DNA from: a virus
Lineage: Duplodnaviria > Caudoviricetes
Direction: 5' to 3' (one strand)
Length of the DNA stretch: 64,000 nt
Virus record (IMG/VR): IMGVR_UViG_3300031994_000020
This document shows positions 11,528-48,628 of this stretch, in pieces (positions within the stretch are counted from its first letter, which is position 1; each line of letters begins with the position of its first letter). The notes below the pieces were generated by a model. That model saw nothing but the letters and a program-made list of their open reading frames with translations. It searched no databases and was not told the DNA's origin. Position numbers and translations under genes: made by a program.

Positions 11528-11528
11528 T

Positions 11529-26367: not shown

Positions 26368-26879
26368 TATTTTATCTCCTCTCGAATCTTTACTTCTTTT
26401 CCTTCTTTATTGTATTCATAAATATATATCTTATCAAATCCTTCATTAAAAGAAGGAAGTGAAAACTGCGAGTACATATTTCTTATTGCAGTCTCAGGAA
26501 CTATTGATCGACCTTCTCGCAGATTATTTCTTGCTATTGCAAGTTCAACAGGAACCTTAATAACAAGAGCTATAACATTTATATCCTTTAATGAAGTTCC
26601 TAATGCTCTTAACAGCTTCCCGCGGGAACATTCATTTATATGAGTAGCATCAACAAAAGTAACATCATTATCTTTTAAAGATGCTTTTATTTCAGATATA
26701 AATTCATTAAAAACTGCTTTTTCTTTAGAGAAATAAGGCTCGTCTTCTGCAACCATTTTAAAACGAATTTCATCGCGGGAGACCACAGCATAGCTACCTT
26801 TTATTTTATTAATTTTATTTTTTATGAATGTAGATTTACCGGACCCCGGAATCCCCACCATCAGATACATTTTCTTCAT
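26367..26879 (-). CDS. AAA_33 polynucleotide-kinase-like protein
   Basis: VGIPGSGKST, SRDEIR, VDATH, RN..R lid motif. Confidence 0.85.
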   Translation of the reverse strand: MKKMYLMVGIPGSGKSTFIKNKINKIKGSYAVVSRDEIRFKMVAEDEPYFSKEKAVFNEFISEIKASLKDNDVTFVDATHINECSRGKLLRALGTSLKDINVIALVIKVPVELAIARNNLREGRSIVPETAIRNMYSQFSLPSFNEGFDKIYIYEYNKEGKEVKIREEIK

Positions 26880-32866: not shown

Positions 32867-34378
32867 TTATGCAGTTATGGCTTCGTATCTCTTACTGAGA
32901 AGTTTCTGAAGACAGAGTTCCCAGCCAGTCACACCAGTTATAACATTTTCAAAGATTACAGGTGAAGCACCACTTACGTAGGTTACACTTTCATCTTCAT
33001 CGAGGATTGTATTTTCTCTCGCCTGTACGTTCCAATAAATGAGCTTAGGCATCTTGTGACCGTGGCGTGCCCACTTCTCACGAACCTTAGCCATTTCTGT
33101 AGCTACAGGACGATTCTTATGTCTCCAACCATATGAGGTTCCCCAATCAGACATAGCATCAATTTCCATGTCAGAAATGACAACTATTTTCTCAGGTATA
33201 TCTTCTTCTTTTGTAGTAGGACGATCTGCTATTTCAAGAAGCATATCAAAAGTTCTTGTAAGGTCAGTATTCTCACAGAGGTTGGTTCTGTAGATACGTT
33301 CAACCTTATCAACGAAATCTGTTCCTCTTATCTCAATAAGCTGAGGTCTTGAGCTGAAGCTAATGTAGTGATTCTTAAAAGGACCTCCTGCTCTCTCAGC
33401 ACAGTACATACCAAGAGAGATAGCTATATTGATAGGAGCAGATGCTTCGTTACCGGTCATAGAACCTGAAGTATCTACAACGCAAAGCATATTGGACTGT
33501 TTTCCATTGAAATAATCCTTCTGATTATCCCAGTATTTCTCTATCATGGCTCTATCGGTTTCAGAAAGAGAAAAACTACTATTCCAATAGTCCATATGGC
33601 TTGTAGCCTTAGCCACGATCTCATAAGGATAGAGAGTAGCAGCATTTACAGTTGTACTTTCGCTCTTTGCAAACTCTTCATACTTCTTTGCTATGATGTC
33701 ACGTCTAGCAAATGCGTTCTTGTATATAAGTCCAGCCTTAGAGGGAATCTTATCAAATTCAATTTCATCCCATCTGTTTTCAGACATAAGTTTCTCTACT
33801 ATATTAATGCGGGCGCGCAGGTCTGAGAGAATTTTTCTATACTGTTTATGTGTAAGACCAAGGTAGTCCCGCACTTTATTACCCATAGCTATTGTTTCCT
33901 TAGAAGATGCGTTCTCTGAAGGAAGCCACTTTGCAAGTAAAGAAGGAGTCTTGCTTTCAAGATCAATAGCAAGCTGTTCCTTGATGAAATCAAGTGCATC
34001 CTTTTCAACCTTTGTGCCAAAGCAAGCATATACTACGTCATCCCAACGTCTATACTCAGGTATCTGCTTTATGAGTTTGCGGGCTACATTAGCGTACTTA
34101 TTAGCAAGCCAATTAAAGCATATTCTAAAATAGCGGCGTTCACCCTGACCACCACGACAGTCACCAAGATAAAAGAGGCACTTAAGAGCGAGATCTGCAT
34201 TTTCCTCATATGCTTCCTTGAAAAGCAGTATACAGTCCTCATTAGTTCTTGAACGATATGCTCCACCAAAAGCAAACATATCATAGACCTTCTTCATTGT
34301 TGAAGAAAGGGCTGTTCCTCCATTCTCAGTGAGCTTGTAATTTGCATCATTCTTCATTTCATTTAAAAAAGCGTTCAT
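32867..34378 (-). CDS. DUF2828-family (TROVE/Ro60-like helical plus vWA) protein
   Basis: LTENG, GQGERR, RWDD, AKWLPSE, VDTSGSM MIDAS, ISDMEID, IYWNV. Confidence 0.85.
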   Translation of the reverse strand: MNAFLNEMKNDANYKLTENGGTALSSTMKKVYDMFAFGGAYRSRTNEDCILLFKEAYEENADLALKCLFYLGDCRGGQGERRYFRICFNWLANKYANVARKLIKQIPEYRRWDDVVYACFGTKVEKDALDFIKEQLAIDLESKTPSLLAKWLPSENASSKETIAMGNKVRDYLGLTHKQYRKILSDLRARINIVEKLMSENRWDEIEFDKIPSKAGLIYKNAFARRDIIAKKYEEFAKSESTTVNAATLYPYEIVAKATSHMDYWNSSFSLSETDRAMIEKYWDNQKDYFNGKQSNMLCVVDTSGSMTGNEASAPINIAISLGMYCAERAGGPFKNHYISFSSRPQLIEIRGTDFVDKVERIYRTNLCENTDLTRTFDMLLEIADRPTTKEEDIPEKIVVISDMEIDAMSDWGTSYGWRHKNRPVATEMAKVREKWARHGHKMPKLIYWNVQARENTILDEDESVTYVSGASPVIFENVITGVTGWELCLQKLLSKRYEAITA

Positions 34379-34908: not shown

Positions 34909-34981
34909 AGGGGTAAATAGGATTCGAACCCATGATCCTGGAACTGCAGTCCAGAGCCTTACCAGACTTGGCTACTACCCC
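34909..34981 (-). tRNA. tRNA-Cys(GCA)
   Basis: CTGGA-CTGCAGT-TCCAG anticodon arm, U73. Confidence 0.9.
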
Positions 34982-35100
34982 AAAAATAATGCCCCCGCAA
35001 AAGCGTTATTATAGCAATGTGCGAGGGCGTTTGTTAAGTAAACTATAAATTTAAGCCGGTATATTTGCTTTCCGTTACTTCTCTTTTTCTTATTAGTCTA

Positions 35101-35191
35101 AGGGCAAGAAAAAGATTTTCATAATTTATAGTTTTCTTTACAAAGTTATAATTTTCTTCTTTATAAGACTTGAAAATTTGCTGTTTGCCCT
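35101..35191 (-). ncRNA. ACAGCAA stem RNA 1
   Basis: AGGGCAA-ACAGCAA...TTGCCCT. Confidence 0.65.
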
Positions 35192-35193
35192 AA

Positions 35194-35265
35194 AGCCCGT
35201 AACGGGAATTGAACCCGTATCCTCTGCTTGGAAGGCAGATATACTAGCCATTGTACTACACGGAC
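35194..35265 (-). tRNA. tRNA-Gly(TCC)
   Basis: TCTGC-CTTCCAA-GCAGA. Confidence 0.9.
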
Positions 35266-35478
35266 ATTGATGCCCTGTGGGAACCACCCTACGGCTCGGG
35301 GATCATTAGCCGGTATTTTTTATCTAGTCTTTGCATGACAAGTTGGCTGTTACTGTCGTGTTCAGCAGACGCTAATTCACTTTTGGAATTAGTAATGTCA
35401 CTCATATGACGGTGAGACCGAACAAAAGTTTCTGGTTAATGAGGCTTTGTCAGACCCAATATGCCAGCAACACAGGCA

Positions 35479-36207
35479 AGCCGCCGGAGGGACTTGAACC
35501 CCCAACCCGCTGATTTGATTCTCAACTTAAACAAATCTCCTTTCCCAAATAAATCCATAAGCAGTATGTCTTTCATTTTTTAATACTTGACATATATGAC
35601 TATTATCACCGTTTACGGCTTTTGCTGCTTCAGTGGCAGTATCATATTCTGCTATAAAATTATGATCTTTATCAAATTGATAAATTTTCATTTTTACTTT
35701 AGGCTCAGGTTGATTATTAATTAATCTACTTAAAGTTTTTTCAGCTGTATAATTTTCAATAAAATATACATCAGCTTGATTTATTTTTTGTTCTTTGAAA
35801 GATAATGTTCTATTTGCGCCTTGACAATCTTCAATTTTTATAAGATAACATTGCCCATTCCAAAAAGTAGCAAAATAATCAACTTCATCAATATACTTCT
35901 TAGATTGCAATGCATGAGTTGTGTTACTTCCTTGAGTTGATCTAGTTGCAAATTCTATTCCTGTTTTAGATTGATTTTCATGGCAAGTTTTTATTTGAAT
36001 TCTAATTAATTTACCATTTATATCAGCTATCATATCATAACGACAATCTTCTCCCAAAGGAATAGATACATTATATCCAAGTTGAGTTAAATAAGTTTGA
36101 CATTGTAATTCTGTTACCAAACCTTTTTGTTTTGTTTCGTTCATTTAACATTTTATTGTTATCCATTGAGAAACAAATCAGCCGCTCTACCATTGAGCCA
36201 CGACGGC
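35479..36207 (-). tRNA. tRNA-Thr(TGT) split by a 657-nt insert (35516-36172)
   Basis: 5' half GCCGTCG..GCTGATTTGT; 3' half AATCAGC..GGGGGTTCAAGTCCCTCCGGCGGC. Confidence 0.85.
35527..36144 (-). CDS. PD-(D/E)XK homing endonuclease (I-Ssp6803I-like) with NUMOD1-like tail, inside tRNA-Thr
   Basis: KGLVTE, GYNVSIP..EDCRYDMIAD...RIQIKT, VDYFA; C-terminal AKAVNG..SHICQV...TAYGFIW. Confidence 0.85.
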   Translation of the reverse strand: MNETKQKGLVTELQCQTYLTQLGYNVSIPLGEDCRYDMIADINGKLIRIQIKTCHENQSKTGIEFATRSTQGSNTTHALQSKKYIDEVDYFATFWNGQCYLIKIEDCQGANRTLSFKEQKINQADVYFIENYTAEKTLSRLINNQPEPKVKMKIYQFDKDHNFIAEYDTATEAAKAVNGDNSHICQVLKNERHTAYGFIWERRFV

Positions 36208-36217
36208 ATTTGGCGCC

Positions 36218-36526
36218 TTATGACGCCTGTTCAGTTACTTCAGTCTTTGCTTCCTGCTTCTTTGCAGCAGCTTCTCTATCTTTCTTTATTTTGATAGCCT
36301 GCTTAATAGATGTCTTACTTTTCAAGAGTTTATTGTCAAAAGCCCATAACAAATTCTCTTCTTTAGCAATTTTATCCTCATAAGCTTTATCACTTTCCGC
36401 TTTGAGACTATCAATAGATAAACTTTTTGTATTACGAATTGTGTTTTCAAAATGCTTTGTTACTTTTGTTGGTGTTGAAGGAGTTGTGTCCTTATTTGTG
36501 AAAATTGTTTTCCACCCTTTAGCCAT
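36218..36526 (-). CDS. Basic hypothetical protein
   Basis: ORF track with promoter and RBS. Confidence 0.6.
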   Translation of the reverse strand: MAKGWKTIFTNKDTTPSTPTKVTKHFENTIRNTKSLSIDSLKAESDKAYEDKIAKEENLLWAFDNKLLKSKTSIKQAIKIKKDREAAAKKQEAKTEVTEQAS

Positions 36527-36586
36527 ATATATTTCCTTTCTTTATCTTATATAAATATTATATCATATTTTTTTTAAAATGTCAAA

Positions 36587-36931
36587 TGGACTTGACGGGA
36601 GTCGAACCCGTGTCCGCGATTCCTATTCCAAATCAATTTTTTACGCAATAGTGTTTTAAAGTGTTCACTCACTGAGCCGACAGGTTATACCTGTTTAGTC
36701 CCACCACTTGTTTTTTCTAAAACAAGAAACTATATAGCCTTTCTTATAAGAGTGAGCATTGACTGGCAAAAGTATTACTCACAATTCCTAAACTCAAGCT
36801 GCAAGAGCAACTTTAGTAGGGAAAGAAACAATTTTCTTTGCGTTTATTTTAAATTAGTGATTGCATAACGCGCATATCATTTCGTGCGAATTGATTTTTT
36901 TATTGAACCTCGTCGAATACCTTACAAGCCC
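36587..36931 (-). ncRNA. ssrA: tmRNA
   Basis: GGGCTTG..TTCGAC 5' end, G3-U70 pair, T-arm ACGGG-TTCGACT-CCCGT; tag reading frame AKKIVSFPTKVALAA-TGA at 36794-36841. Confidence 0.93.
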
Positions 36932-37158
36932 TCAGATTCTTTAACAACTAATTGCTTATATATATCATGCAATATTGTTAATCTTTCATCAAATTTAGAT
37001 GTTAAAGTATTAAAATTGTTTCCTATAAGAGGCTCCCATTTAATATCAACATGACATCCAAGAAGTACTGCGGTTCTTATATCATTATATGATATAATCG
37101 CATTATTCAAAGCGTCAATTAATGTTTTTAAATTTTCAACTTCTAATTCTATTTTCAT
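36922..37158 (-). CDS. Hypothetical protein, 3' end overlaps the tmRNA 5' end
   Basis: ORF track. Confidence 0.55.
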   Translation of the reverse strand: MKIELEVENLKTLIDALNNAIISYNDIRTAVLLGCHVDIKWEPLIGNNFNTLTSKFDERLTILHDIYKQLVVKESEGL

Positions 37159-37316
37159 AGAAACTTATTTTAAAAATTACTTGCTAAGATTACGAATTTC
37201 TCTGCGTAGTTTCTGAACCACACCACCGCTCTTAATATTCTTAGGATTTTCCATGAGTTTATTAAGTCTGTCCTTCTTTAATGCAAGTTTCTCTTCTTTA
37301 GTCATATATATCTCCT

Positions 37317-37616
37317 TTATTTTCTTTTAAAATCTTTTTCCCATTCATTTATCTATTCTTCAAAAGCATAATAATCACTAGGAGAATACCATCTTCTGCG
37401 TTTATTATAATTCTCTATCCATTCTTCTTTAGTGCATCTATTTATCCAATCATGTATATCATAAGAACAGAATATTTTTTTATATGCTTTACCTTTTTTG
37501 GGTAATTCTTCAAAATTAGTATTACGAACTTTTTTATTCGCAAACTTTTTCATTTCTTTTGTTGTCCCAGGGCTTCCATCTGTAATTACGGGATTATGCT
37601 TATAACTTCTGCTCAT
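37317..37616 (-). CDS. Hypothetical protein (MSRSYK type), read through TAG 37353-37355
   Basis: ...YAFEE(TAG)INEWEKDFKRK-TAA. Confidence 0.7.
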
Positions 37617-37635
37617 ACTTTTATCCTCCTCTTAG

Positions 37636-37707
37636 CACAGGTACCGGGAATCGAACCCAGATCTAAGCATTAGAAGTGCCTTGTTCTCTCCATTAAACTA
37701 CACCTGC
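37636..37707 (-). tRNA. tRNA-Arg(TCT)
   Basis: AGGCA-CTTCTAA-TGCTT. Confidence 0.9.
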
Positions 37708-37710
37708 ATA

Positions 37711-37782
37711 CACTCCCAGCGGGATTCGAACCCACAATGTCTGGTTCGTAGCCAGATAGTTTCTCCATTAGCTTACAGGAGC
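37711..37782 (-). tRNA. tRNA-Arg(ACG)
   Basis: TCTGG-CTACGAA-CCAGA. Confidence 0.88.
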
Positions 37783-37928
37783 AAATGACAGCTTATCGAG
37801 AACTGTCGACGCTGTAGTGTGGCTATATGCCCAAAGGATCCGGACCCACTCTTTAAATGATGGCGCCTCTCGACCAGAGCTACATCCTACAGAATTTTTC
37901 TCTATGCAGAAATTTCTAACTCCTGCAA

Positions 37929-38047
37929 ATATGCGGGTGGGAATCGAACCCACATGTATTCAGAGAACCAATGGCTTCACGGAATCGAACCGTGTCTGAA
38001 TTCCTTTCATGCCCTTGATAGCGTCTACCCATTTCCGCCACCGCATA
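37929..38047 (-). ncRNA. tRNA-Leu-shell RNA (copy 3)
   Basis: TATGCGG/CCGCATA acceptor, GGCGGAAATGGGTAGACGC D-arm, internal T-loop CACGG-TTCGATT-CCGTG, terminal T-arm. Confidence 0.7.
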
Positions 38048-38049
38048 AA

Positions 38050-38121
38050 CTGAGGTGGCAGGATTCGAACCTGCGAATGACGGGATCAAAACCCGTTGCC
38101 TTACCACTTGGCGACACCCCA
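38050..38121 (-). tRNA. tRNA-Gln(TTG)
   Basis: U1-A72, ACGGG-TTTTGAT-CCCGT. Confidence 0.92.
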
Positions 38122-38473
38122 ATATATCTCAGACTTATTGCTGCACCCAAGGTAGATATTAGGATAAGTCTGAAATATTAACAATTAATAATAATTAATA
38201 ATTAATAATTAATACACAGCTTTTTCTAAATAATATTAAATCTACTATAAATACCAAATCTACCGTTAGTATCATAGCTCATTTAATAGATAATGAAAGA
38301 AAAAGTTTTTAGGCGGGTTATAATTTAATTCTGCTAAACCAGAATAAACTTTTTCTTTTCTATTAAACGAGATTATATTCCCGCACGTTTACAATAGTTG
38401 CCATGAGATTGTATTAAGTTTAGTAATATCAATCTTTTACCTTATCCTTATTTTAAGGAAATACTATGGTAAA

Positions 38474-38547
38474 TTGGAGTGGCGGGATTTGAACCCACGA
38501 TCTCTTGAACCCAAATCAAGCGCCTTACCGAACTAGGCTACACCCCA
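38474..38547 (-). tRNA. tRNA-Pro(TGG)
   Basis: CTTGA-TTTGGGT-TCAAG. Confidence 0.9.
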
Positions 38548-38553
38548 AAATAC

Positions 38554-38626
38554 AAGACACGCTACTATCTTTATCATTCTATAATATTGGCTGAATGTGA
38601 ATTAAAATTTTTGCTGTTTGTGTCTT
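38554..38626 (-). ncRNA. ACAGCAA stem RNA 2
   Basis: AAGACACAA-ACAGCAA...GTGTCTT, directly downstream of a promoter. Confidence 0.7.
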
Positions 38627-38676
38627 TTTTAACTTTCTATAAATATTATACCATATTTTTTTATAAAAGTCAAATA

Positions 38677-38988
38677 TTAAAAATAATCACTGATTTTTTC
38701 ATTACAATATTTTTCTATAAAACCTTGTGGATCTTTATAAATTTCATCATTAAGTTCGTTCAATGATTTAAAAGTTTCTTCTGTAAAAGGATAAACTTCA
38801 TATGCAACGTGTTCTTCGCAATTGTAATCTTCATCTTCATCCTCAAGAGCATAACTTTGCATAACATCATAACTCATTTGCTCTGCTATTATATTAGCAT
38901 CTTCTTCTGTTCCTTCTACAACAGCAAAAGAATTTATCCCATGAAGTCCTCCAAAAGTATCTTCATAAGCACAAATTGCATATAACAT
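38677..38988 (-). CDS. Acidic hypothetical protein
   Basis: ORF track with promoter and RBS. Confidence 0.6.
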   Translation of the reverse strand: MLYAICAYEDTFGGLHGINSFAVVEGTEEDANIIAEQMSYDVMQSYALEDEDEDYNCEEHVAYEVYPFTEETFKSLNELNDEIYKDPQGFIEKYCNEKISDYF

Positions 38989-39101
38989 ATTTATTATTTT
39001 CTCCTTTCTTAACTTTATATAAATATTATATCATAAATTTTTTAAAAAGTCAAGGGGCGGGAACGGACCCAATCCTAAAGATCTCAGAACCGGGTTCCCG
39101 C

Positions 39102-39515
39102 TTAATCAGGTTCACCGCTAGCATAGTCAACTTTCTAAATAAAACCTTTACTCAATCTCTCTGGATCTTTTACTTCAGATTTCTCATCATTAAAAGGTGC
39201 TTGAAAAGCAGTTACATTTATTTTTATATTTTTTTCTTCTGCATCATCATTAATATCTTTAAATACTTCTGGTTGAAATTCAAACATGCCTGTAGACCCT
39301 ATTTTAAATTCTAAATAATTTTTACTATTATTAAATTCTAAAAAAATAGGGTAATTTATTGCTCTATTTTCGCAGCAATAACCAAATTTATACACAGGGG
39401 TAGAAGGAAAAGTATATTGTTTATATGTAACAGCATGTTCTATTCCGTCAATAATAATATGTTCTTTTGTAATTTCCGTTCCTGAATCATAATTAGTTAT
39501 TTGAGATATATCCAT
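39102..39515 (-). CDS. Hypothetical protein, read through TAG 39135-39137
   Basis: ...KGFI(TAG)KVDYASGEPD-TAA. Confidence 0.6.
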
Positions 39516-39570
39516 TCATTATACCTCCTTTTATAGAATAAAAGAAAGGGAGATAAAATTTATCTCCCTA

Positions 39571-39795
39571 TCAGTTCTTACTTGTGTCTATTGTTATATT
39601 AAGAGTTGTGTTATTAACAATTTCAATTTTGGTTACTTCATCATCCTCAAGAAAGTCATCTAAACACTCATATCCTTTAAGAATAAAAGTGATAAGAAGT
39701 AAATCCTGTTCATCAAAAAGATTTACTTTTATATCTTTATCAGACTCTATAACGCTTAATAAACCTTTTAAAGTTATAAGTACATCATTTTCCAT
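39571..39795 (-). CDS. Hypothetical protein
   Basis: ORF track. Confidence 0.55.
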   Translation of the reverse strand: MENDVLITLKGLLSVIESDKDIKVNLFDEQDLLLITFILKGYECLDDFLEDDEVTKIEIVNNTTLNITIDTSKN

Positions 39796-39801
39796 AATTT
39801 A

Positions 39802-40053
39802 TTAACCTCCTTGTGATGTTTTATTAATACCAAAAAGAGTTAATGTGTCATTCTCATAAGTATAAGGTATCGCTTTAATAGCTATTTTTTCATTTCCATT
39901 TATTTCTAATGTATCATCATCAACTAAATCAAAATCAGATGTACTTTTATTTCCACCCAAAGATACATTATTTATTGAAGGTTTATCTTTTAATGCGTTA
40001 TAGCTATCATAGGTTCCTGAATAAGGAATACCATTTTTATAAATTGCTCCCAT
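39802..40053 (-). CDS. Small virion/tail-fibre-like protein
   Basis: YNALKDKPSINNVSLGGNKS motif typical of fibre accessory proteins. Confidence 0.5.
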   Translation of the reverse strand: MGAIYKNGIPYSGTYDSYNALKDKPSINNVSLGGNKSTSDFDLVDDDTLEINGNEKIAIKAIPYTYENDTLTLFGINKTSQGG

Positions 40054-40077
40054 ATGGACCCCTCCGTTTACTTTTTA

Positions 40078-41247
40078 TTATTCCTCTATTAAAGAAAAAT
40101 CTAAATTATTATATACACACACGCCGCAATCAATGTTATTCTGCATTAATTTTCTTGTTTCTGGATTTTCTTTCATTTTAGTCCAAATTTCATATATTTT
40201 ATTTTCATCATATTCTTCTGTATGAAGTTTGTCAAAAAATTCTTTTATTCCCATGCAAGGTATAATACCTATCATACTACCATCCTGATATTTTGCCATA
40301 GAAGCCATAGAAAACATTTCAGCAAGAGCTTCTTCTGAAATACCTTCTTCTATTTTTTTATAGCAAGTATGATAAAATTTCTTTACATATTCCCAGTTCT
40401 GCTCTGCAAATACAGGTTTCTTTGCATAGGTTTCAATCCAATAGTAATAAAGTTGGAGCATTACACTTGCTATTGTTTGCATAACATTCCCATCAAAAGG
40501 ACGTTTCTTTCTTACATTTTCAATAGCATAAATCATATTATCTGTCCAACCGCAGAAGCACTGATCAAGTGCATATTGTCCATCATTAATGCGGGTGATA
40601 GAATTGTTTTTGTTGTGCCATAAATATACTATATCTTGTAAAAATCTTATTTGTTCATTTGCATTAGAACATAATAATTGAACCCATTTATTATATCCAG
40701 TATCTTCATTAGCACGAGTTTCATTAAATTTAATTCCATAATCCTCAATAAATTTTCTACGATATAATTTACCAAACATCCAAACCATATCATTTAAATG
40801 CGGAAGCATCTGCTTAGTTTCTTCTCCAAGCTGCATAAAACCCGCGGAAACGCATTTAATTGAATCTGCGGGGAATTGAGGATTTTCTTGTTTCATGCCC
40901 TCCCGCATTATCTCTAATGACAATGCGGAAGAGAATGTATCATCTGCATCTATACAAGTAAAAAATTGATTTTTTCCTTCTTCAATACCCACCTGCCGCG
41001 CAACACCGGGTCCCGCATTTACTTCAAGTCTTTTAACAACTATATCAAGACCCAGATTTCTAAATTGGCAAGCTATTTTATCATATTCCTCTCTATTGTT
41101 AGGGGTAGCATCATCTACTATAATAACATGTAAATCATCTTTAATAGTTTGCATAAGTATTGATGCTAATGTTCTTCTTAATGTTCCCTGAGCTTTATAA
41201 GCTGGGATTATAATATCAATTTTATTATTTGTATTTTCTTTAGCCAT
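40078..41247 (-). CDS. Family 2 glycosyltransferase
   Basis: IIIPAYK, IIVDDAT, GPGVARQVG, CIDADD, NEDTG. Confidence 0.9.
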   Translation of the reverse strand: MAKENTNNKIDIIIPAYKAQGTLRRTLASILMQTIKDDLHVIIVDDATPNNREEYDKIACQFRNLGLDIVVKRLEVNAGPGVARQVGIEEGKNQFFTCIDADDTFSSALSLEIMREGMKQENPQFPADSIKCVSAGFMQLGEETKQMLPHLNDMVWMFGKLYRRKFIEDYGIKFNETRANEDTGYNKWVQLLCSNANEQIRFLQDIVYLWHNKNNSITRINDGQYALDQCFCGWTDNMIYAIENVRKKRPFDGNVMQTIASVMLQLYYYWIETYAKKPVFAEQNWEYVKKFYHTCYKKIEEGISEEALAEMFSMASMAKYQDGSMIGIIPCMGIKEFFDKLHTEEYDENKIYEIWTKMKENPETRKLMQNNIDCGVCVYNNLDFSLIEE

Positions 41248-41275
41248 AAGTTATTCTCCTTTTATCTCCTTTTGT

Positions 41276-43117
41276 TTATCTATCATTATATAGATATATA
41301 TTCTATGCTTCATTCTAAGCACAAACGTCATTTGTTGTCCATGTAATTGATGAGCTTACAAGTGAATGGCTACCTGAAGTTGACATTGCATTTTTCATAT
41401 TTCCGCCAATACCAAAATGGATCTCTTTTCTTTTTTCACCATTTGTTGATTGAAATAAACCATCCTAAGCATTAACATTCATACCCGTCATATTAGTAAT
41501 TGTAATAATATTTTCAAAATTTTTACAATTAGCAAGCATATATCCTACACTTGGACAATTAACTGGTATTGTTAATGGTTGATTAAAATTATAACAATTT
41601 GAAAAAGTAAATGTTAATCTAACGTTACTATTTGGTAATTTTATAGGTTGGTTAAATGAATGAGCACTATTAAACATACTTGTCATATCATAAACAGTAT
41701 CAGGTATATTAATAGGCTGATTAAATGACTAAGCATTATAAAACATGTTACTTGTATTAGTAATGTTATTAGGTATATTAAAAGGTTGGTTAAATGATCG
41801 AGCATTGTAAAACATCTATGTTACTGAACATCCGTTTCCATTATTATACTATTGTATATTTAATGAAGCATTAAATGGACTATTATCAAACATCCTTTCT
41901 GTATTCTGTGCATTTTCAATATATACAGAAGAATTTAAATTACTTGAACTAAAAATACCTGATAATCTTACTGGTTTATTAGAATAAATATTAACAGAAC
42001 TATTAAAATTGTAACAGTAACCAAATGCAGAAGAACAATCAGCCTATTCAAATTTTGAATTACAATAAAAATTCATGGGTTGATTAAAATTTCTACAATT
42101 CTAAAACATTTGATAAGCATTCATTGTTTCAACATAAACAGGACTATTAAAATTAATACAATTTGTAAAACAGTATTGACTCTAAGTAACATTTTTAATA
42201 TTAACAGGACTATTAAAATTAAAGCAGTTATAAAAACAATTAACTATACTTGAATTTAGATTAATATCATCAATAATTATATCTATAGGTTGATTAAAAT
42301 TATAAGCTTCTCTAAAACAATTTACCATATTAGTTACATTATGTGGTAAATTAAGAGGTTGATTAAAATTAAAACAATTTTGAAACGTCCCCATCATCTG
42401 TAAATAAATATTATTAGTAGCATTTGATAATATAGTTATAGATGAATTAAAATTTCTACAATCATAAAGCATATTTCCTATATTCTTAACATTTTCAGGT
42501 ATTGTAATAGGCTGATTAAAATTATTACAATATCCAAATGCAGCAAATAATGATGTGCAAGTTTCTGGAAAATTTACTCTTTGATTAAAACTTTCATATT
42601 GCTACATTAAATAATCCAAATTTGTAGCGTCTTCAGCTATTGTAATAGGCATATTATAAGCATTTTGAAAACGATTCATAGGGAATGTTCCACCTATAAT
42701 AGTATTATTAGTAAAAGATATTGAAAAATCTACACTTTCACTATAAATCTAAGATTTAATATATCCTGCACTGTGTTCTATATTACTTTTTAGCTAGGTG
42801 ACCCTCTAGGAAGTACCATAATAATCTATATTAAAAAAATTATCATAATTCACAGGATTATTTTTTAAATTTGAATAAAGATAATCCATAGATGATATTA
42901 AATTTTCATTAATATACTTTTCTACTGTTATACTAGCATCAGTACCACCTGTTGTTTTTGTTAATATATGATAACGATATACAGTAGAAGATCCACCGCC
43001 AGTATTTATGTTATTAATGGCGGCCGCCATTTCAGAAGGCTTATAAGTTGTTGCAACTCCCGCCTTGCTTCTTATACTATTTGCTATATCTAAAAAGATA
43101 TTTGTTAATGTACTCAT
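41276..43117 (-). CDS. BspA/DUF285-like repeat surface or fibre protein with 13 internal TAG
   Basis: One 614-codon frame joining three ORF-track fragments; repeats of MFxNCxxFNQPIxIP. Confidence 0.8.
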
Positions 43118-43135
43118 ATTAAATACCTCCCTTCA

Positions 43136-43891
43136 TCAGAAATAAGTATCTAATACTTGAGTTATTGCTATATTTATTTGCTGATCGGTATAATCATTTG
43201 CCGCATCAATTTGTGTATCAACATAACTCTTACTTACTTTATTTCCTAATTCTGTATTGACTTTAGAACTTGACCATACTTTACTAACATCAACAGAAGT
43301 ATCATCTATTTCTGCTGCAACAGCTACTGCATCTGTTATATAATATGTTGTTCCATTAAGTTTCTCTGATGCGGGAAGTGCGTCGTACTGAGCTTTGGTC
43401 AACTCCATTGAAGGATCTTGACGTTGAGGTACCCATTGAGTACCATCCCATAAATAAAAAATCCCATCTGCAATACAATAATACATTTTTCTATCAGCAG
43501 AAGTGAATCTAGGTGGAAGATCCTCTTCAGTAGCGACTATATCATAGTTACCATCGGGACTACCTATTTCATTCCATTTTGTATCATCAAAAACCATATC
43601 TTGGTTTTCTCTTATACAACGATAAAAACAAGAAGCATATATAGCCAAATCACCATACTTATAAGTATCTCCCGCAGTCCATTCATAAATAGGAGTACCA
43701 TCATTTACAAAAGCTTGACTTTCTCTTGTTTCCCCTTCATCATTCTTCTACTCGAATGTAATTATTGATTGACCATCTTGTTTAGTTATGGATTTTACTT
43801 TACATGGTGCGCCTTTAAGACCGCCAAATTGAGCCGCAGTTTCATCTGTGTACTTTTTGGCAAGCGCATAAGCTGTAACTGATAATCCCAT
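43136..43891 (-). CDS. Tail-fibre-like protein, read through TAG 43748-43750
   Basis: MGLSVTAYALAKKYTD...ITFE(TAG)KNDEG...FYLWDGTQW...LTKAQYDAL...KVWSSSKV. Confidence 0.7.
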
Positions 43892-43905
43892 GATTCAATC
43901 CCTCC

Positions 43906-44076
43906 TTATAATAAATGATACTCTTCATCATTTCCAAGCATCTATACTGAGCTATCTTCTAATACAATAGCAGTACTACCAACGCCAACATTGGTAGGGA
44001 GATCTTCTATATCTTCAAGGGAATCAGCGACTATTTCAACAGTTCCTGACTGTCCATTTGAAATTATTTTGAACAT
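43906..44076 (-). CDS. Small structural-type protein with one TAG
   Basis: ...DIEDLPT..GVGSTAIVLEDSSV(TAG)MLGND... Confidence 0.6.
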
Positions 44077-44295
44077 AGTTTTGCCCTCCTTTATAGTTCT
44101 ACAATATATAAAAAAATGCGGGAAATGAATATCCTATTTTGCCCTAAAAAAATTCCAAACACCTATTTTGTTCCCGGTAGCCCGATCGCTTGCCGCCCAG
44201 CAGATTATTTTTCCTTAAACTAAATAAACGCCGAAGATATAAAATCTTCGGCAAATAAAAAAGCCCCAATGAACTTAATCATCAAAGCTCCCCTA

Positions 44296-44383
44296 CGCGG
44301 ATCCAGGGACTCGAACCCCGATCGCCCTTTCGAGCTACAGCGGTTTTCAGGACCGCCCTCTTAGCCAATTAGAGTAAATCCGC
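44296..44383 (-). tRNA. tRNA-Ser(TGA)
   Basis: GCGGT-CCTGAAA-ACCGC, long variable arm, G73. Confidence 0.85.
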
Positions 44384-44390
44384 AAATTAC

Positions 44391-44498
44391 AAGACTTCCA
44401 TATTTGAGCCGGGGACTGGATTCGAACCAGTATCTTCTAATTTTGTTAGATGCACTACCTTTATACTACCCTGGAAATTATTTTGCTGATGAAGTCTT
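44391..44498 (-). ncRNA. ACAGCAA-type stem RNA 3 enclosing a tRNA-like cloverleaf with a 5-nt anticodon loop
   Basis: AAGACTTCA-TCAGCAA...GAAGTCTT; cargo TCTAA-CAAAA-TTAGA and ACTGG-TTCGAAT-CCAGT. Confidence 0.7.
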
Positions 44499-44501
44499 TA
44501 A

Positions 44502-44588
44502 CGTTCGGAGCAAGATTCGAACTTGCGGACCCCGAAAGGTCCCCACATTAGCAGTGTGGTGGTTTAAACCAGGCTCACCCATCCGAAC
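44502..44588 (-). tRNA. tRNA-Ser(GCT)
   Basis: CCACA-CTGCTAA-TGTGG, long variable arm. Confidence 0.9.
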
Positions 44589-44596
44589 AGTATTAC

Positions 44597-44662
44597 TAAG
44601 CACATTATTAGGTATATTGATTAAAAGTCAATGCCATATTTAAAATTTGCTGTATGTGCTTA
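44597..44662 (-). ncRNA. ACAGCAA stem RNA 4 displaying a tRNA-Lys(UUU) anticodon stem-loop
   Basis: TAAGCACAT-ACAGCAA...ATTGA-CTTTTAA-TCAAT...ATGTGCTTA. Confidence 0.75.
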
Positions 44663-44665
44663 AAG

Positions 44666-44747
44666 TGGGCAGGGCTGGACTCGAACCAGCGAAGGCTTGC
44701 GCCAATGGGTTTACAGCCCACCGCAATTGCCACTATGCGACCTACCC
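44666..44747 (-). tRNA. tRNA-Tyr(GTA)
   Basis: GTGGG-CTGTAAA-CCCAT, long variable arm. Confidence 0.92.
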
Positions 44748-44873
44748 ATATGCCGTGCGGAACGGAAGCTAAGTCGACTCGAACAGACCACGGCTATCTT
44801 ATATTATTGAGGTTTTTATATAAGACTTAAGTCGATTTTACTAGAGTTAACCTCAATACCTCTAGAGCGATAG

Positions 44874-44991
44874 ACGGAAGGACGAGACTCGAACTCGTAT
44901 CATCAGGCCCCCTAAGCATTATAATAATTGCTGTACAAGAATATATCTAATCTCTTTTATATACTGCGCTCTACCATTAAGCTACCTTCCG
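44874..44991 (-). ncRNA. tRNA body whose anticodon loop is replaced by an ACAGCAA module (RNA 5)
   Basis: CGGAAGG/CCTTCCG acceptor, normal D and T arms, insert ...AAGAGATTAGATATATTCTTGT-ACAGCAA... Confidence 0.7.
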
Positions 44992-44993
44992 CG

Positions 44994-45085
44994 CAGGAGC
45001 TGTAGGACTCGAACCCACACCCGAGGCTTTGGACACCTCTGTCCCGGTTTTAGAGACCGGTGTGCTGCCATTACACCAAGCTCCC
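44994..45085 (-). tRNA. Amber suppressor tRNA(CUA) derived from tRNA-Trp, with a 25-nt variable arm
   Basis: CCGGT-CTCTAAA-ACCGG (anticodon at 45051-45053); acceptor GGGAGCT/AGCTCCT-G73; T-arm identical to the neighbouring tRNA-Trp. Confidence 0.93.
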
Positions 45086-45094
45086 AATTAATAG

Positions 45095-45165
45095 CAGGAG
45101 TTGTAGGACTCGAACCCACCTCTCTGGTTTTGGAGACCAGGGCACAACCCCTATACCAAACTCCC
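45095..45165 (-). tRNA. tRNA-Trp(CCA)
   Basis: CTGGT-CTCCAAA-ACCAG; acceptor GGGAGTT/AACTCCT-G73. Confidence 0.92.
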
Positions 45166-45171
45166 ATAATC

Positions 45172-45281
45172 AAGACACTATATAAGTTTGGATTCGAACC
45201 AAAATCTTTAAACTTTTACATCTAATATTCTACCTTTAAACTACTCTCCCTTTGCGGAAGCAACATCGCTGTTAGTGTCTT
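45172..45281 (-). ncRNA. ACAGCAA-type stem RNA 6 enclosing a degenerate tRNA
   Basis: AAGACACTA-ACAGCGA...TAGTGTCTT; cargo with D-like arm and TTTGG-TTCGAAT-CCAAA. Confidence 0.7.
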
Positions 45282-45445
45282 AATAATAACGGCTCAACCC
45301 GTTTTGCAGAGGATCCCCTCTGGAGTTCCCCGGCTTCTGATTTTCACAAGTACCAGGTGGTGGACCAGGAATCATAGCTACTCAAGAACTAGGCTCCGCG
45401 CGCGGTTGTTTTACTAATTCAATTTTACTATGTTCAGCCACTTTA

Positions 45446-45516
45446 GGTGCCTAGTGGGAATTGAACCCACATATGCGGTACCACAAACCGCTGTTCTACC
45501 ATTAAACTATAGACAC
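45446..45516 (-). tRNA. tRNA-His(GTG)
   Basis: GCGGT-TTGTGGT-ACCGC, C73. Confidence 0.9.
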
Positions 45517-45518
45517 AG

Positions 45519-45591
45519 TACCCAAAGTAGGATTCGAACCTACAAAAACTACGTCCTTAGCGCAGTGCGTATGCCATTCCGCCATTTGGGC
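45519..45591 (-). tRNA. tRNA-Leu(AAG), short variable loop
   Basis: CTGCG-CTAAGGA-CGTAG, Leu-type D-arm, A73. Confidence 0.8.
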
Positions 45592-45672
45592 TTATCAGCG
45601 CCTTTCTTAACCTGTCCGAAAACAGAGGTTCCTTCACTGGCAGTCCGAAAACTTCAGAGGGCTTATTTTTAG

Positions 45673-45755
45673 TGCGGGAGGCGGGATTCGAACCCGCACG
45701 GAGTCACCTCCGGGGGATTTTAAGTCCCCTGCGGCTACCTTTACGCCACTCCCGC
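45673..45755 (-). tRNA. tRNA-Leu(TAA)
   Basis: GGGGA-CTTAAAA-TCCCC, long variable arm. Confidence 0.92.
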
Positions 45756-46002
45756 ATATATCTTAACTAGACCACTCGCATCCCACCATCTTGTTTTAAA
45801 ATCAATTAGAGGTATAACGATTAAAATCTCCCTCTCTTATCATTTAATCATATGCCTAAGCCTTGTCCGTCTGTTAAGAAATAGTAAGTGCGGAAGATTA
45901 ACCGCCTCCCGCCGCGGATCCATGTATTATTTCTCCCCAGGACATTTGGGATACTGTGAATTGATTATATAGAAACCCCGAAAGGAGGACTATATTCATT
46001 TC

Positions 46003-46116
46003 AAAGCACCTTTTTTCTTTGCCCTACCTACTAGGCGATCTGCGCTAAAGTGGCGCGCGGAGCTGGACTCGAACCAGCGAAACGAGAATTAATCTCCAAT
46101 TTGCTGTAGGTGCTTT
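46003..46116 (-). ncRNA. ACAGCAA stem RNA 7 enclosing a circularly permuted tRNA (YrlA-like topology)
   Basis: AAAGCACCT-ACAGCAA...T-arm GCTGG-TTCGAGT-CCAGC, TCCGCGC-GCCA, loop, GCGCAGA, D-arm...AGGTGCTTT. Confidence 0.8.
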
Positions 46117-46118
46117 AA

Positions 46119-46189
46119 TAGCGGATGCGGGATTCGAACCCGCGTCTTCTGCGTATGAGGCAGACAAGGAACCGCTCCTCTAATCCGCG
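46119..46189 (-). tRNA. tRNA-Met(CAT), initiator-like C1 mismatch
   Basis: TCTGC-CTCATAC-GCAGA; C1 opposite U72. Confidence 0.8.
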
Positions 46190-46262
46190 ATAATATGGGC
46201 GTTTGTTTCAAGGCGGACACCCAGCCGCCAGAAAAGAGGGGAAACGAATATTGACAAACTAA

Positions 46263-46335
46263 CAGCGAGTACGGGGATCGAACCCATATCTAGTCCTTGA
46301 AAGGGACTTATCCTTGCCGATTAGAAGAACTCGCC
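46263..46335 (-). tRNA. tRNA-Glu(TTC)
   Basis: AGTCC-CTTTCAA-GGACT. Confidence 0.88.
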
Positions 46336-46657
46336 AAAATACTAGTTTTTACCTAGGGAAACTAGCAAACCTTCCACCCCACCTATACGCTCTGGGTAAG
46401 CGGTTATTTGTTATGATTTATATACCGGTCGCAAACAGGTTTTCTCCGCAATACCCGGTTAAAAATCCACGATAGCCTGCCAAGGTGGGACGCCTAAATC
46501 CCCACTATCTCACTGATGCATCAATGCGAGATTCAACTATGACGATTTTTCTCTACTTGGTTATCTACCCTTTGTGGATAAATGGGGAGATAAACTTGAC
46601 GAAAACTAGTATTCATAGGACGTTTTTCGCCCATGTCGTCGTTTATCCCTATCCCAA

Positions 46658-46730
46658 TGACGGATATTGGATTCGAACCAATGTCGCCTGGCTGAGAACC
46701 AAGCATCCTAAACCGCTAGACGAATCCGCC
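46658..46730 (-). tRNA. tRNA-Glu(CTC)
   Basis: CTTGG-TTCTCAG-CCAGG. Confidence 0.88.
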
Positions 46731-46865
46731 ATAATTTTCATTTATATTCTTTAGACTCCCAAAAGAAACCCGTGCCCGTAAAACAAAATGGAGTTGCCGG
46801 CGGTTTTTGTGCGCTGAGGAAAAACCTTTAAAAACCTCATTTTTTATAATAAACTAGCCTTAACT

Positions 46866-46961
46866 TGCGTCCAACAAGGATTCGAACCTTGACCCCCTCT
46901 TACGCTATTCCGCAGCCCGCGGCCGTAAAGGTATGCTTGTGCCACTCACACTCTCGAACAC
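46866..46961 (-). ncRNA. tRNA-like RNA with an elongated, branched anticodon arm
   Basis: Acceptor GTGTTCGA/TTGGACGC, T-arm CAAGG-TTCGAAT-CCTTG, ~35-nt arm with no 7-nt loop. Confidence 0.6.
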
Positions 46962-47133
46962 CAACTAGTTATTATCATTCAGGTGGTAGGTATTTCAGAC
47001 TCTCACCGTTATTGATTAGCCTACTCTTTTATTTATCGGATTTCTGTCAACCCTATTATTTTTTATTGCTTTCTTAACTTTCTATAAATATTATATCATA
47101 TTTTTTTATAAAAGTCAAATATGATTTTTAAAC

Positions 47134-47197
47134 TAAGCACAGTGTTTTGCATTTATAATCCCAAATTATACGCTAAAAAGATTGCTGTATGTGCTTA
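47134..47197 (-). ncRNA. ACAGCAA stem RNA 8 displaying a tRNA-Pro(UGG) anticodon stem-loop
   Basis: TAAGCACAT-ACAGCAA...TATAA-TTTGGGA-TTATA...TGTGCTTA. Confidence 0.72.
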
Positions 47198-47198
47198 A

Positions 47199-47272
47199 CG
47201 GCGATGGAGGGAATTGAACCCTCGACCTCCAGGTTGACAGCCTGGCACTCTAACCATCTGAGCTACACCGTC
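47199..47272 (-). tRNA. tRNA-Asp(GTC)
   Basis: CCAGG-CTGTCAA-CCTGG, G73. Confidence 0.9.
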
Positions 47273-47482
47273 AAATATAAGAGTTAAAGACTAGGTGGGT
47301 GGTCATATTTCAGCCACACGCTTATACTACTCAAATTCGTAAACATTCACTTCCAAATGTTCAGGCGTAGACATTTTATACCCATTTGAACCATAGTCGA
47401 ACTAACATGATGTGGGAAACCAACCTCACTCTACCTCGCCTACCTAGTCGGACGATTGGACCTGATCCGTTTCAACTCTTAA

Positions 47483-47555
47483 TTCTCATTCTGGGAATCG
47501 AACCCAGTCTCCAACCCTCTTTAGGGTCGGGTGCTTCCCATCACACTCAATGAGA
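47483..47555 (-). ncRNA. tRNA-like RNA with an 8-bp anticodon arm capped by a tetraloop
   Basis: TCTCATT/AATGAGA acceptor, CCGACCCT-AAAG-AGGGTTGG, CTGGG-TTCGATT-CCCAG. Confidence 0.65.
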
Positions 47556-48001
47556 CCGTAACTTTGCTTTTGAAAGCTACCAAAGTCAAATCGCGTTTAA
47601 TGTCTGTGGACTCTCGACAACCGCTACATTTTAGGTCTGCAACTCGACCACCATCAGCAGTTCTTTAGTGGCGCTCAACCGGAAACTGCTTATCCGACCA
47701 CCTAGCCCCGTGTTGCCCTCGAGTACTCCACTTATGAGCCGTATGTTAGTCGCTAACCACATAGCCTACTTTGACAGATTTCCTCTCTGGGAAAAGTATC
47801 ATTTCGACTTCCCAATCTGTTTATAAAGCGAGGATTAGGCTACAACCGCTTCGCTTGCAAACTAGCTTACTTTTTTTGTTGCTTCCACAGCGACCGCAAC
47901 TGGACAAACATAGCTTAATTAAACCAACTGGCATTTCAGAGACTCTTTTTGAGTTCTTCGTACTCGGGTGAGGATCTGCAATGCTCTGCCGTCTCCCAAA
48001 C

Positions 48002-48074
48002 CGCTTACTCTATCTTTTACGTCCTAGTAAGAATGGACGCTTACTCTATCTTTTATGTCCCGGCAAGAATGGAC
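48002..48074 (-). repeat. Tandem 36-nt repeat, each copy a possible H-type pseudoknot
   Basis: GTCCATTCTTRCYRGGACRTAAAAGATAGAGTAAGC, two copies. Confidence 0.75.
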
Positions 48075-48103
48075 TTAAAATATATAATAAAACTTCCTTA
48101 TAT

Positions 48104-48181
48104 TGAGCCGTCAAGGACTCGAACCTTATCTCCCGATTAGCCCACAGGTGTCTTTTTACCGCAATTAGACGATCCAACCCC
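48104..48181 (-). pseudogene. Degenerate tRNA
   Basis: D-arm GTCT..AGAC and T-arm AAGG-TTCGAGT-CCTT; poor acceptor and anticodon arms. Confidence 0.5.
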
Positions 48182-48343
48182 AGAAGTCTTATTAACTTTT
48201 TATCTTATATAAATATTATATCATATTTTTTTAAGAAAGTCAAATTTTTTATTTTCTTTATTTTATTTTCCTTTCTTAACTTTCTATAAATATTATATCA
48301 TATTTTTTTATAAAAGTCAAATATGATTTTTTAATAAAGAATA

Positions 48344-48429
48344 CGGGTGCGATAGGATTCGAACCTACATGGAGTTTCCTCGCACTGACGGGTTAACAGC
48401 CCGCTGCCAAGCCTTTTGGCGACACACCC
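48344..48429 (-). tRNA. tRNA-Asn(GTT) with an unusual long variable arm
   Basis: GCGGG-CTGTTAA-CCCGT, 19-nt variable region, G73. Confidence 0.85.
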
Positions 48430-48557
48430 AATTAATAATGCAGACGTTACCACCGCTGCCACCAAAGAATAACTTTCCCAACCTCGTGCACAGGTTGCTC
48501 TGGCCCCCAACTATTAGTTGTTCAGAAAGTTTTTCATGCTACACTTACAAAAGCAAG

Positions 48558-48628
48558 TACGGGATGGTAGAATTGAACTACCTCAGCCACCTTATCAGAG
48601 TGGAAAGCTACCATTACATCAATCCCGC
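48558..48628 (-). tRNA. tRNA-Ile(GAT)
   Basis: CCACT-CTGATAA-GGTGG, A73. Confidence 0.85.

Follow-up and report, generated by a model that had tools for sequence, protein, structure and literature searches.

Within a tRNA cluster in the DNA of a rumen phage, the minus strand carries a small-RNA gene of about 62-68 nt, designated element D, whose product is, with a probability of roughly 0.85, a Y-RNA-like partner RNA bearing a selected mimic of the tRNA-Lys anticodon arm. From 5' to 3', D is composed of UUAAGCACAU, ACAGCAA, a 14-nt linker, the hairpin AUUGA-CUUUUAA-UCAAU, a 10-nt linker and AUGUGCUUAG, and these parts are located as follows in the window (the whole 64,000-nucleotide stretch of viral DNA that was analyzed).

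44596-44663 (model match 44597-44662), minus strand: whole element D, probably a rod-shaped, Y-RNA-like RNA with a Lys anticodon-arm mimic
44654-44663, minus strand: 5' strand of the terminal stem, UUAAGCACAU, pairing with 44596-44605
44647-44653, minus strand: ACAGCAA, an unpaired bulge on the 5' side, of which CAGCAA is invariant in alignments A1-A4
44633-44646, minus strand: linker 1, 14 nt in the minimum free energy (MFE) fold
44616-44632, minus strand: anticodon stem-loop mimic AUUGA-CUUUUAA-UCAAU, with a 5-bp stem and a 7-nt loop
44606-44615, minus strand: linker 2, 10 nt, comprising an AUA 3' bulge, the CC of the lower helix and then UAAUA
44596-44605, minus strand: 3' strand of the terminal stem, AUGUGCUUAG, closing a 10-bp stem

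The hairpin of D is made up of AUUGA (44632-44628), the loop CUUUUAA (44627-44621), in which the 'anticodon' UUU occupies 44625-44623, and UCAAU (44620-44616), and it shows the attributes of a tRNA-Lys anticodon arm, namely a 5-bp stem, a 7-nt loop, U33, a purine at position 37 and UUU. Of 28 distinct tRNA-Lys(UUU) genes called in related loci, 26 have an identical loop, and the hairpin 17-mer has one match in the window at up to two mismatches, compared with 0.05 predicted from shuffled sequences. The original prediction had placed this hairpin at 44616-44632 as an anticodon arm devoid of other tRNA arms, in a stretch of DNA with no intact tRNA-Lys gene, and these points stand: the coordinates are exact, with the RNA on the minus strand; D contains neither a D arm nor a T arm, and no tRNA is called at D by ARAGORN in its normal and low-threshold modes; a search of Rfam at E≤1 returns no tRNA, no Y_RNA or YrlA match and no known RNA family for D; and no tRNA-Lys is called by ARAGORN or Rfam among the approximately 25 tRNA genes of the window. 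The mitochondrial mode of ARAGORN does report an armless 'tRNA-Phe' on the opposite strand at D, which was rejected as an artefact of a permissive mode acting on an AT-rich hairpin. In the MFE fold, G44635 and G44634 can pair with C44612 and C44611 to give a weak lower helix, which in D itself comprises 2 bp only (GG/CC), and C44633 forms a 1-nt 5' bulge. As a single sequence, D folds unexceptionally (MFE -10.3 kcal/mol, z -0.99); the case for the RNA comes from comparing it with other phages.

The terminal stem and the ACAGCAA bulge together form a handle that is common to about 8 RNAs in the window and to hundreds elsewhere. A finder blind to the cargo, which seeks CAGC(A/G)A after a strand able to pair with a second strand 25-170 nt downstream, recovers 7 elements in the array of the window (at 47199, 46118, 45284, 44663, 44498, 38626 and 35191), and in 80 related IMG/VR loci, fetched through the neighbouring Ro60-like protein, it recovers 228 elements on the strand of the protein gene versus 19 on the opposite strand. 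A covariance model, R1, was built from 10 other phages with the sequence of D excluded; MAFFT alignments A1-A3 left the terminal stem's 3' strand unaligned, and R1 was seeded with the geometry-matched alignment A4. This model finds D at 44597-44662 on the minus strand with 49.2 bits (E 1.2e-7), and its 93 matches in all (D and 92 more) lie without exception on the strand of the Ro60-like gene. Family-wide, the inner seven pairs of the terminal stem are 98.6% paired, with compensatory changes at 7/7, as measured on an alignment that was fitted to R1 and is thus biased towards the structure. CAGCAA is unchanged across alignments A1-A4, and the ACAGCAA bulge is likely to be the protein-binding part of the handle. 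Also present in the window is a paralogue of D, element H, which has the same first 17 nt and a similar end but a different cargo hairpin.

47134-47197, minus strand: paralogue H, with the hairpin UAUAA-UUUGGGA-UUAUA (Pro UGG-type loop); R1 match of 24.8 bits

The siblings G, C and F in the window carry tRNA-like bodies of the acceptor/T/D type; the 'tRNA-Phe(AAA)' called by ARAGORN at 44406-44475 (minus strand) is really such a tRNA-like body within handle RNA C (44498-44391).

Handle RNAs are present in cultured phages (Tsamsa, Felix-O1-like phages of Salmonella and E. coli, and Klebsiella phage KP2025), which makes their biology experimentally reachable. Bacillus phage Tsamsa has five (AGACAC...ACAGC[AGT]A) in and around its tRNA array upstream of gp247, an 'RNA-binding protein' that is Ro-like; these lie at 9300-9345, 10232-10352, 10877-10955, 11456-11515 and 11845-11905 of its locus (L081), none is annotated in the record, and one holds a permuted tRNA-like body. 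A handle RNA of Salmonella phage SP116 (Felixounavirus; L320:10713-10779) displays UCUGA-AGGUAAA-UCGGA, whose loop is a Tyr(GUA)-like near-mimic with AG in place of CU at positions 32-33. A pattern scan of genome-bin contigs gave mostly chance matches; the 7 loci that remain after filtering with R1 all lie on gut or rumen genome-bin contigs, three of them of about 150 kb, and give no reliable host.

The cargo held by the handle was tallied over 81 distinct short-cargo handle RNAs from related phages, chosen without regard to the cargo. In 21 of the 81 there is a hairpin with 5 bp or more whose 7-nt loop fits Y-U-NNN-R-N (shuffled sequences: mean 1.9, maximum 5), the cargo loop is identical to a real tRNA anticodon loop of the same loci in 15 (0.1 for shuffled sequences, 0 for reverse complements), and CUUUUAA occurs in 8 (0.007 for shuffled sequences). 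Lys(UUU) accounts for 11 of the 25 anticodon-like hairpins versus 4% of the tRNA genes in the same loci (P 1e-9); other loop types are Pro (UGG, GGG, AGG), Asn(GUU), Thr(UGU), Cys(GCA), Tyr(GUA), Leu(UAA) and Ser(UGA), and an anticodon-like hairpin is absent from 43 of 80 handle RNAs. With relaxed stems, 14 distinct Lys-type elements are found among the relatives near a Ro60-like gene, displaying at least 10 anticodon stems under the invariant loop; Lys-type stems include AUUGA, UUCGA, AUAGA, UUUGA, GUAAA, UCGGA and AUCAA. The loops in homologues, for which the original prediction had left random and canonical sequences as the alternatives, are therefore non-random and correspond to natural anticodon loops with a strong Lys(UUU) bias. 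Judged by these sequence comparisons, D is neither a product of chance nor a decayed tRNA.

Lys-type elements were also sought across IMG/VR with the pattern ACAGCAA-N(8-30)-GACTTTTAATC, with no protein used to pick the loci, and at least 117 stretches were found. Among the matches listed, 68 of 82 (80 loci) combine an anticodon stem that reaches 4 bp or more with a terminal stem that reaches 6 bp or more, which gives at least 64 distinct Lys-type elements, carried on very diverse handles. A Ro60-like gene lies within about 9 kb (mean) in 34 of 62 two-stem loci among the matches listed, where tRNA genes also occur in 60 of the 62 pattern-found loci and about half of the elements lie no more than 16 nt from a tRNA. 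A genuine tRNA-Lys(UUU) is also kept in 24 of these 62 loci, again among the matches listed, which indicates that the Lys-type element accompanies tRNA-Lys rather than replacing it; a real tRNA-Lys(UUU) is likewise nearby in 9 of the 14 Lys-type relatives. The array neighbours of Lys-type elements, compared across loci, show no conservation.

The structure common to these elements is supported by covariation. Pairing in the anticodon stem reaches 94.7% across 54 Lys-type homologues, versus 73.9% in shuffled controls, and the covariation score is 0.438 versus 0.100, a level attained by 0 of 500 shuffles; in this test the search pattern fixed the two pairs nearest the loop. The loop is invariant while both the terminal stem and the anticodon stem covary. 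Linker-linker pairing gives a lower helix of at least 3 bp in 85% of the Lys-type elements, compared with 37% when the linker is shuffled, and directly beneath the 5-bp stem there is, in the modal case, an internal loop of 1 nt on the 5' side and 3 nt on the 3' side. The nucleotide preceding the stem resembles position 26 of tRNA-Lys: A occupies the former in 54 of 64 mimics and the latter in 28 of 28 true tRNA-Lys genes. The RNA forms one unbroken rod, from which ACAGCAA bulges on one side only, and its distal part appears to resemble an anticodon stem stacked on a D-stem-like helix. The mimic stems differ from the tRNA-Lys stems of the phages and of genome bins, the latter comparison being subject to an unreliable bin-based assignment of hosts.

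The presumed protein partner of the handle RNAs is encoded on the same strand as D, 10.2 kb downstream at the end of the array, and is followed by genes for a phosphoesterase, an RNA ligase, a P-loop kinase, a second phosphoesterase and a PIN-PhoH protein.

32867-34378, minus strand: Ro60-like protein gene (Pfam DUF2828 and DUF7788)
30520-31272, minus strand: second calcineurin-like phosphoesterase
28450-29700, minus strand: RNA ligase (PHA02142 OB fold and PF09414)
26367-26879, minus strand: P-loop kinase (AAA_33), a candidate RNA end-healing enzyme
25804-26367, minus strand: metallophosphoesterase, a candidate RNA end-healing enzyme

A search of PDB sequences with the Ro60-like protein gave no Ro60 match, and the relationship was found by fold search alone. 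The AlphaFold2 model (pLDDT 82, pTM 0.84) has as its top 12 Foldseek matches exclusively Ro60/Rsr/TROVE structures, over the full length and with a probability of 1.0 and a TM of about 0.5, among them Xenopus and human Ro60, Deinococcus Rsr and the Ro60 of Thermus phage phiLo; the partner is accordingly modelled with the Ro60 ring fold of HEAT repeats and a vWA domain. The DUF2828 protein family is found in 709 GenBank phages. Tsamsa, Felixounavirus SP116, Klebsiella phage KP2025 and Listeria phage AG20 all have the Ro60-like gene next to the tRNA array; the first three also contain handle RNAs, and AG20 gives no more than a weak R1 match but has RtcB and an RNA ligase beside the homologue. 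Phages that share the design of D have Ro60-like proteins that are only 50-68% identical. By analogy with the T4 Pnkp/Rnl1 paradigm, the kinase, phosphoesterases and ligase may constitute a set of tRNA break-repair enzymes; such genes lie within 10 kb of the Ro60-like homologue in only about a quarter of related loci. Located among the RNA-repair genes beside the Ro60-like gene are also a full-length flagellin (Flagellin_N and Flagellin_C) and a FliD-like flagellar cap protein (27295-28113, minus strand, and 31447-32820, plus strand), an arrangement shared by one or two related loci.

Element D lies within a 14-kb tRNA/tmRNA array (34909-48628) in which every gene is on the minus strand, starting 1-3 nt past tRNA-Tyr and ending 6-7 nt ahead of tRNA-Ser(GCU).

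47090-47118, minus strand: nearest strong promoter-like site upstream of D (TTGACT-17-TATAAT with TG), a consensus match only
44665-44747, minus strand: tRNA-Tyr(GUA), directly upstream of D
44501-44589, minus strand: tRNA-Ser(GCU), directly downstream of D
44229-44253, minus strand: terminator-like hairpin that would close the transcription unit of D, a consensus match only

These sites suggest that D is co-transcribed with about 15 tRNA-type genes from 47118, and from its position, the 5' end of D would be freed by 3' processing of tRNA-Tyr and its 3' side by the RNase P cut at tRNA-Ser(GCU). Metatranscriptome contigs from two runs are identical to parts of the array, with none over D; such contigs cannot reveal a 65-nt RNA. 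D is present in two DNA runs without a listed difference, where only about 2 differences would be expected, an exact 44-nt stretch of D has no match in IMG/VR, and close strains of the phage were found in sheep and goat gut runs only.

Several other features of the array were observed. A near-identical promoter cassette of about 35 nt (TTGACT, 17 nt, TG-extended TATAAT) is repeated at 48768-48740, 48320-48292, 48243-48215 and 47118-47090, with similar copies near 38650 and 36580, and these cassettes divide the array into several units; handle element B (38626-38554) begins directly after one copy, and Tsamsa has a like layout of promoter and then handle RNA. Long spacers between tRNA genes (46337-46656, 47274-47482, 45251-45445, 47556-48342 and 46732-47133) are rich in G+C (44% versus about 30% for the genome), have no match in Rfam and may be further structured RNAs; the metatranscriptome contigs with the highest depths in the array (45 and 72) are identical to 46383-46630 and 46779-47112. 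Between element E and tRNA-Tyr, the spacer (44748-44873, minus strand) contains a T-arm-like GGUCUGUUCGAGUCGAC within GCCGUG...CACGGC and is possibly another tRNA fragment or mini-helix RNA, one that lacks the ACAGCAA handle. ARAGORN calls a tRNA with a 4-base anticodon (AAAG) at 47483-47555 (minus strand). Three long minus-strand reading frames, 41276-43117, 10808-12623 and 22171-23484, are open only with TAG as a sense codon (13, 12 and 5 TAG codons, respectively); the window has an amber-reading tRNA at 44993-45085, and one handle RNA among the relatives carries CUCUAAA, which these recoded phages use as the anticodon loop of their amber-suppressor tRNAs.

As to what the Lys mimic does, we tentatively favor, at somewhat less than even odds, a function as bait for anticodon nucleases. 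The fullest account, in which a Y-RNA-like partner RNA is processed from the array, presented by the Ro60-like protein and used as nuclease bait, is held to be almost, though not quite, an even proposition. RNase P and tRNA 3'-end processing would release D from the tRNA-array transcript, and the Ro60-like protein would bind the handle, stabilize the RNA and present the anticodon arm, which would then engage proteins that read the anticodon arm of tRNA-Lys, the likeliest targets being defence nucleases of the host that cut tRNA, for example PrrC, RloC or PARIS AriB. D would act either as a decoy, in competition with genuine tRNA-Lys, or as a sacrificial fuse that is itself cut, working beside the phage tRNAs and the ligase, kinase and phosphoesterase repair genes. 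The decoy idea agrees with the lysine bias and with the anti-defence context. The original prediction of an RNA sponge had taken tRNA-Lys(UUU) to be a target of anti-phage nucleases, as is documented for AriB, which cleaves tRNA-Lys(UUU), Thr(UGU) and Asn(GUU) at UAAUC|A (PMC12409363); the part of that prediction which fares poorly is the free sponge, as D is probably not free-standing: its handle is the conserved one of RNAs that co-occur with a Ro60-like protein.

The bait reading is favored because the cargo leans towards Lys(UUU), which nucleases classically target, because the other AriB targets, Asn(GUU) and Thr(UGU), also occur as cargo, and because D carries the AriB cleavage-site sequence as U36-A-A-U-C|A41 (PMC12409363). 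It is favored, too, by the investment of the phage in tRNAs and repair enzymes, by the demonstration that a Felixounavirus Ro60-like protein is a counter-defence factor (bioRxiv 10.1101/2024.10.10.617714) and by the suggestion from the Wolin laboratory that YrlA might competitively inhibit an anticodon nuclease (PMC7790460). Against it, AriB also requires contacts with the D loop (PMC12409363), which D does not offer, and the mimic stem does not copy the tRNA-Lys stem of either the phage or the genome bins; the fuller account is further weakened by the absence of an anticodon-like hairpin from about half of the handle RNAs (the 43 of 80 above), by the weak lower helix of D and by the fact that no more than about a quarter of related loci have repair genes close to the Ro60-like gene. 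The Felixounavirus protein, gp130 of Bas63, is encoded beside tRNA genes and counters the Ppl defence, which is not known to cut tRNA, and it does so alone, from a plasmid or when moved into T7 (bioRxiv 10.1101/2024.10.10.617714), so that the Ro60-like protein may act without handle RNAs. An extension that we regard as rather doubtful is a programmable ribonucleoprotein counter-defence, in which one Ro60-like ring takes up handle RNAs with exchangeable anticodon-arm cargos, such as those for Lys, Pro, Asn, Thr, Cys and Tyr, each neutralizing a host nuclease directed against that tRNA; were it true, the cargo repertoire of a phage would report which tRNAs its hosts attack.

The main rival to the bait reading, itself unlikely, is that D serves as an adaptor, its anticodon arm recruiting to the Ro60-like ring a protein that recognizes the arm of tRNA-Lys, as in the Ro60-Y RNA-PNPase machine. 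The recruited protein could be lysyl-tRNA synthetase, an anticodon-loop modification enzyme or the phage healing and sealing enzymes, and the particle would then serve tRNA quality control or repair rather than nuclease inhibition. Consistent with such a tether are the predicted Ro60 fold of the partner, the binding of host PNPase by the Ro60 and Yrl RNAs of phage phiLo (PMC12135203), the recognition of YrlA modules by tRNA enzymes (PMC4201824) and the repair genes that adjoin the Ro60-like gene, as well as the A kept beneath the stem in the position of A26 and the 1-nt/3-nt internal loop above the lower helix, which recalls the junction of anticodon stem and D stem. However, repair enzymes recognize broken rather than intact loops, the many anticodon types would demand many recruited partners, and the strong lysine bias is explained less directly than by lysine-tRNA nucleases.

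Readings of D as a relic, a pseudogene or a promoter are weak. It is improbable that the handle alone matters and that the cargo is merely a stable spacer drawn from neighbouring tRNA fragments and kept by descent: the many handle RNAs with cargo other than an anticodon-like hairpin, and the whole or permuted tRNA bodies held by other family members, which imply frequent recruitment of tRNA pieces, do accord with this idea, but the 7-nt loop does not vary where linkers, terminal stem and anticodon stem show both divergence and covariation, Lys(UUU) is ten times as frequent as among tRNA genes, very different handles bear the Lys-type elements (at least 64 distinct ones), and D and H present different complete loops on one handle in one genome. 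Very improbable is a decayed tRNA-Lys pseudogene, or a minimal armless tRNA still decoding AAA, to which the lack of a tRNA-Lys gene in the window and the location of D in a tRNA array, with a closing stem and an anticodon arm, would lend themselves; D has no T or D arm and receives no sense-strand tRNA call in any ARAGORN mode, its closing stem is the family handle with ACAGCAA rather than an acceptor stem, a real tRNA-Lys(UUU) is kept nearby in many of the loci with Lys-type elements (the 24 of 62 pattern-found loci among the matches listed, and 9 of 14 relatives), and the design is conserved across phages whose Ro60-like proteins have diverged to 50-68% identity. Least credible of all is an internal promoter on the minus strand, in which the hairpin TTGACT, 16 nt and AATAAT would resemble the phage TTGACT-17-TATAAT promoters; 10 of 12 consensus positions do match (44631-44604), and TTGACTTTTA, which makes up the first 10 nt, is the same as the -35 region of the strong phage promoters, but TTGAC is intrinsic to the stem of D, homologues use AUAGA, UUAGA, UUCGA and others with no conserved -10, D lacks a TG-extended -10, and the conserved pairing points to RNA structure.

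Cleavage of tRNA is recognized as a common anti-phage strategy, employed by PrrC, RloC, PARIS and retron and Septu effectors. If the bait reading of D is true, mimicry would be a third phage answer to it, after replacement tRNAs and repair enzymes, and bacterial Ro60/Y-RNA biology would gain a concrete, testable role. Genes for handle RNAs at present either go without annotation or may be mistaken for tRNA pseudogenes, and in the literature searched no paper on ACAGCAA-handle RNAs or on anticodon-arm cargo was found.

Compared with the YrlA-type Y RNAs that partner Rsr/Ro60 (RF02553; Chen et al. 2014, PMC4201824), D is alike in that its 5' and 3' ends pair, a short conserved motif lies beside the stem, a tRNA-derived module is present, RNA-repair genes are often near, and a Ro60-fold protein is encoded nearby on the same strand. 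YrlA, however, mimics the acceptor/T/D part of tRNA with the Ro-binding stem in place of the anticodon arm (PMC4201824), whereas D shows the anticodon arm only. The motifs, ACAGCAA in D and GNCGAA(N)G in YrlA, are analogous in position and different in sequence; D is also shorter (62-68 nt versus 80-130 nt) and, unlike the YrlA partner, the window protein matches DUF2828/DUF7788 and not TROVE in Pfam. Both the bulged helix sequence that binds animal Ro and the bacterial GNCGAA(N)G are absent from D, which resembles a Y RNA yet fails the sequence tests for described Y-RNA families. In Thermus phage phiLo (PMC12135203; PDB 9KOP, 9L5Y), a phage Ro60-fold protein, whose structure is among the fold matches of the window protein, has the genes of its partner RNAs Yrl1 and Yrl2 upstream, and these RNAs share the stem-bulge-stem build of D; they carry a CGAA bulge, with no anticodon-arm mimic reported, and their proposed role is capture of host PNPase (PMC12135203). 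Bas63 gp130, compared by description, resembles the window protein in being a Ro60-like protein encoded directly beside phage tRNA genes, and Felixounavirus SP116 has both a DUF2828 homologue in a gp130-like position and handle RNAs; the experimental anti-defence evidence for gp130, in which the protein alone sufficed, differs from the RNA-displaying particle proposed here.

Phages are known to answer attack on tRNA-Lys with tRNA-Lys variants, in the case of T5 and PARIS AriB (PMC11464382, PMC12409363), or with repair by Pnkp and Rnl1, in the case of T4 and PrrC (PMC3014915). The window phage shares with these systems the focus on tRNA-Lys(UUU) and has a large tRNA set together with kinase, phosphoesterase and ligase genes; the T5 and T4 answers are, however, replacement tRNAs or repair enzymes, whereas D is unable to decode, and any action that it has would be through mimicry. 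A tRNA-like element in the HIV-1 genome mimics the anticodon arm of tRNA-Lys3 and binds lysyl-tRNA synthetase, serving primer placement. It is similar to D as a viral RNA that copies the tRNA-Lys anticodon arm to engage its reader, and unlike D in belonging to a eukaryotic retrovirus, in being part of the genomic RNA and in having no Ro60-type partner. D is placed here with the Ro60/Y-RNA kind, as a variant.
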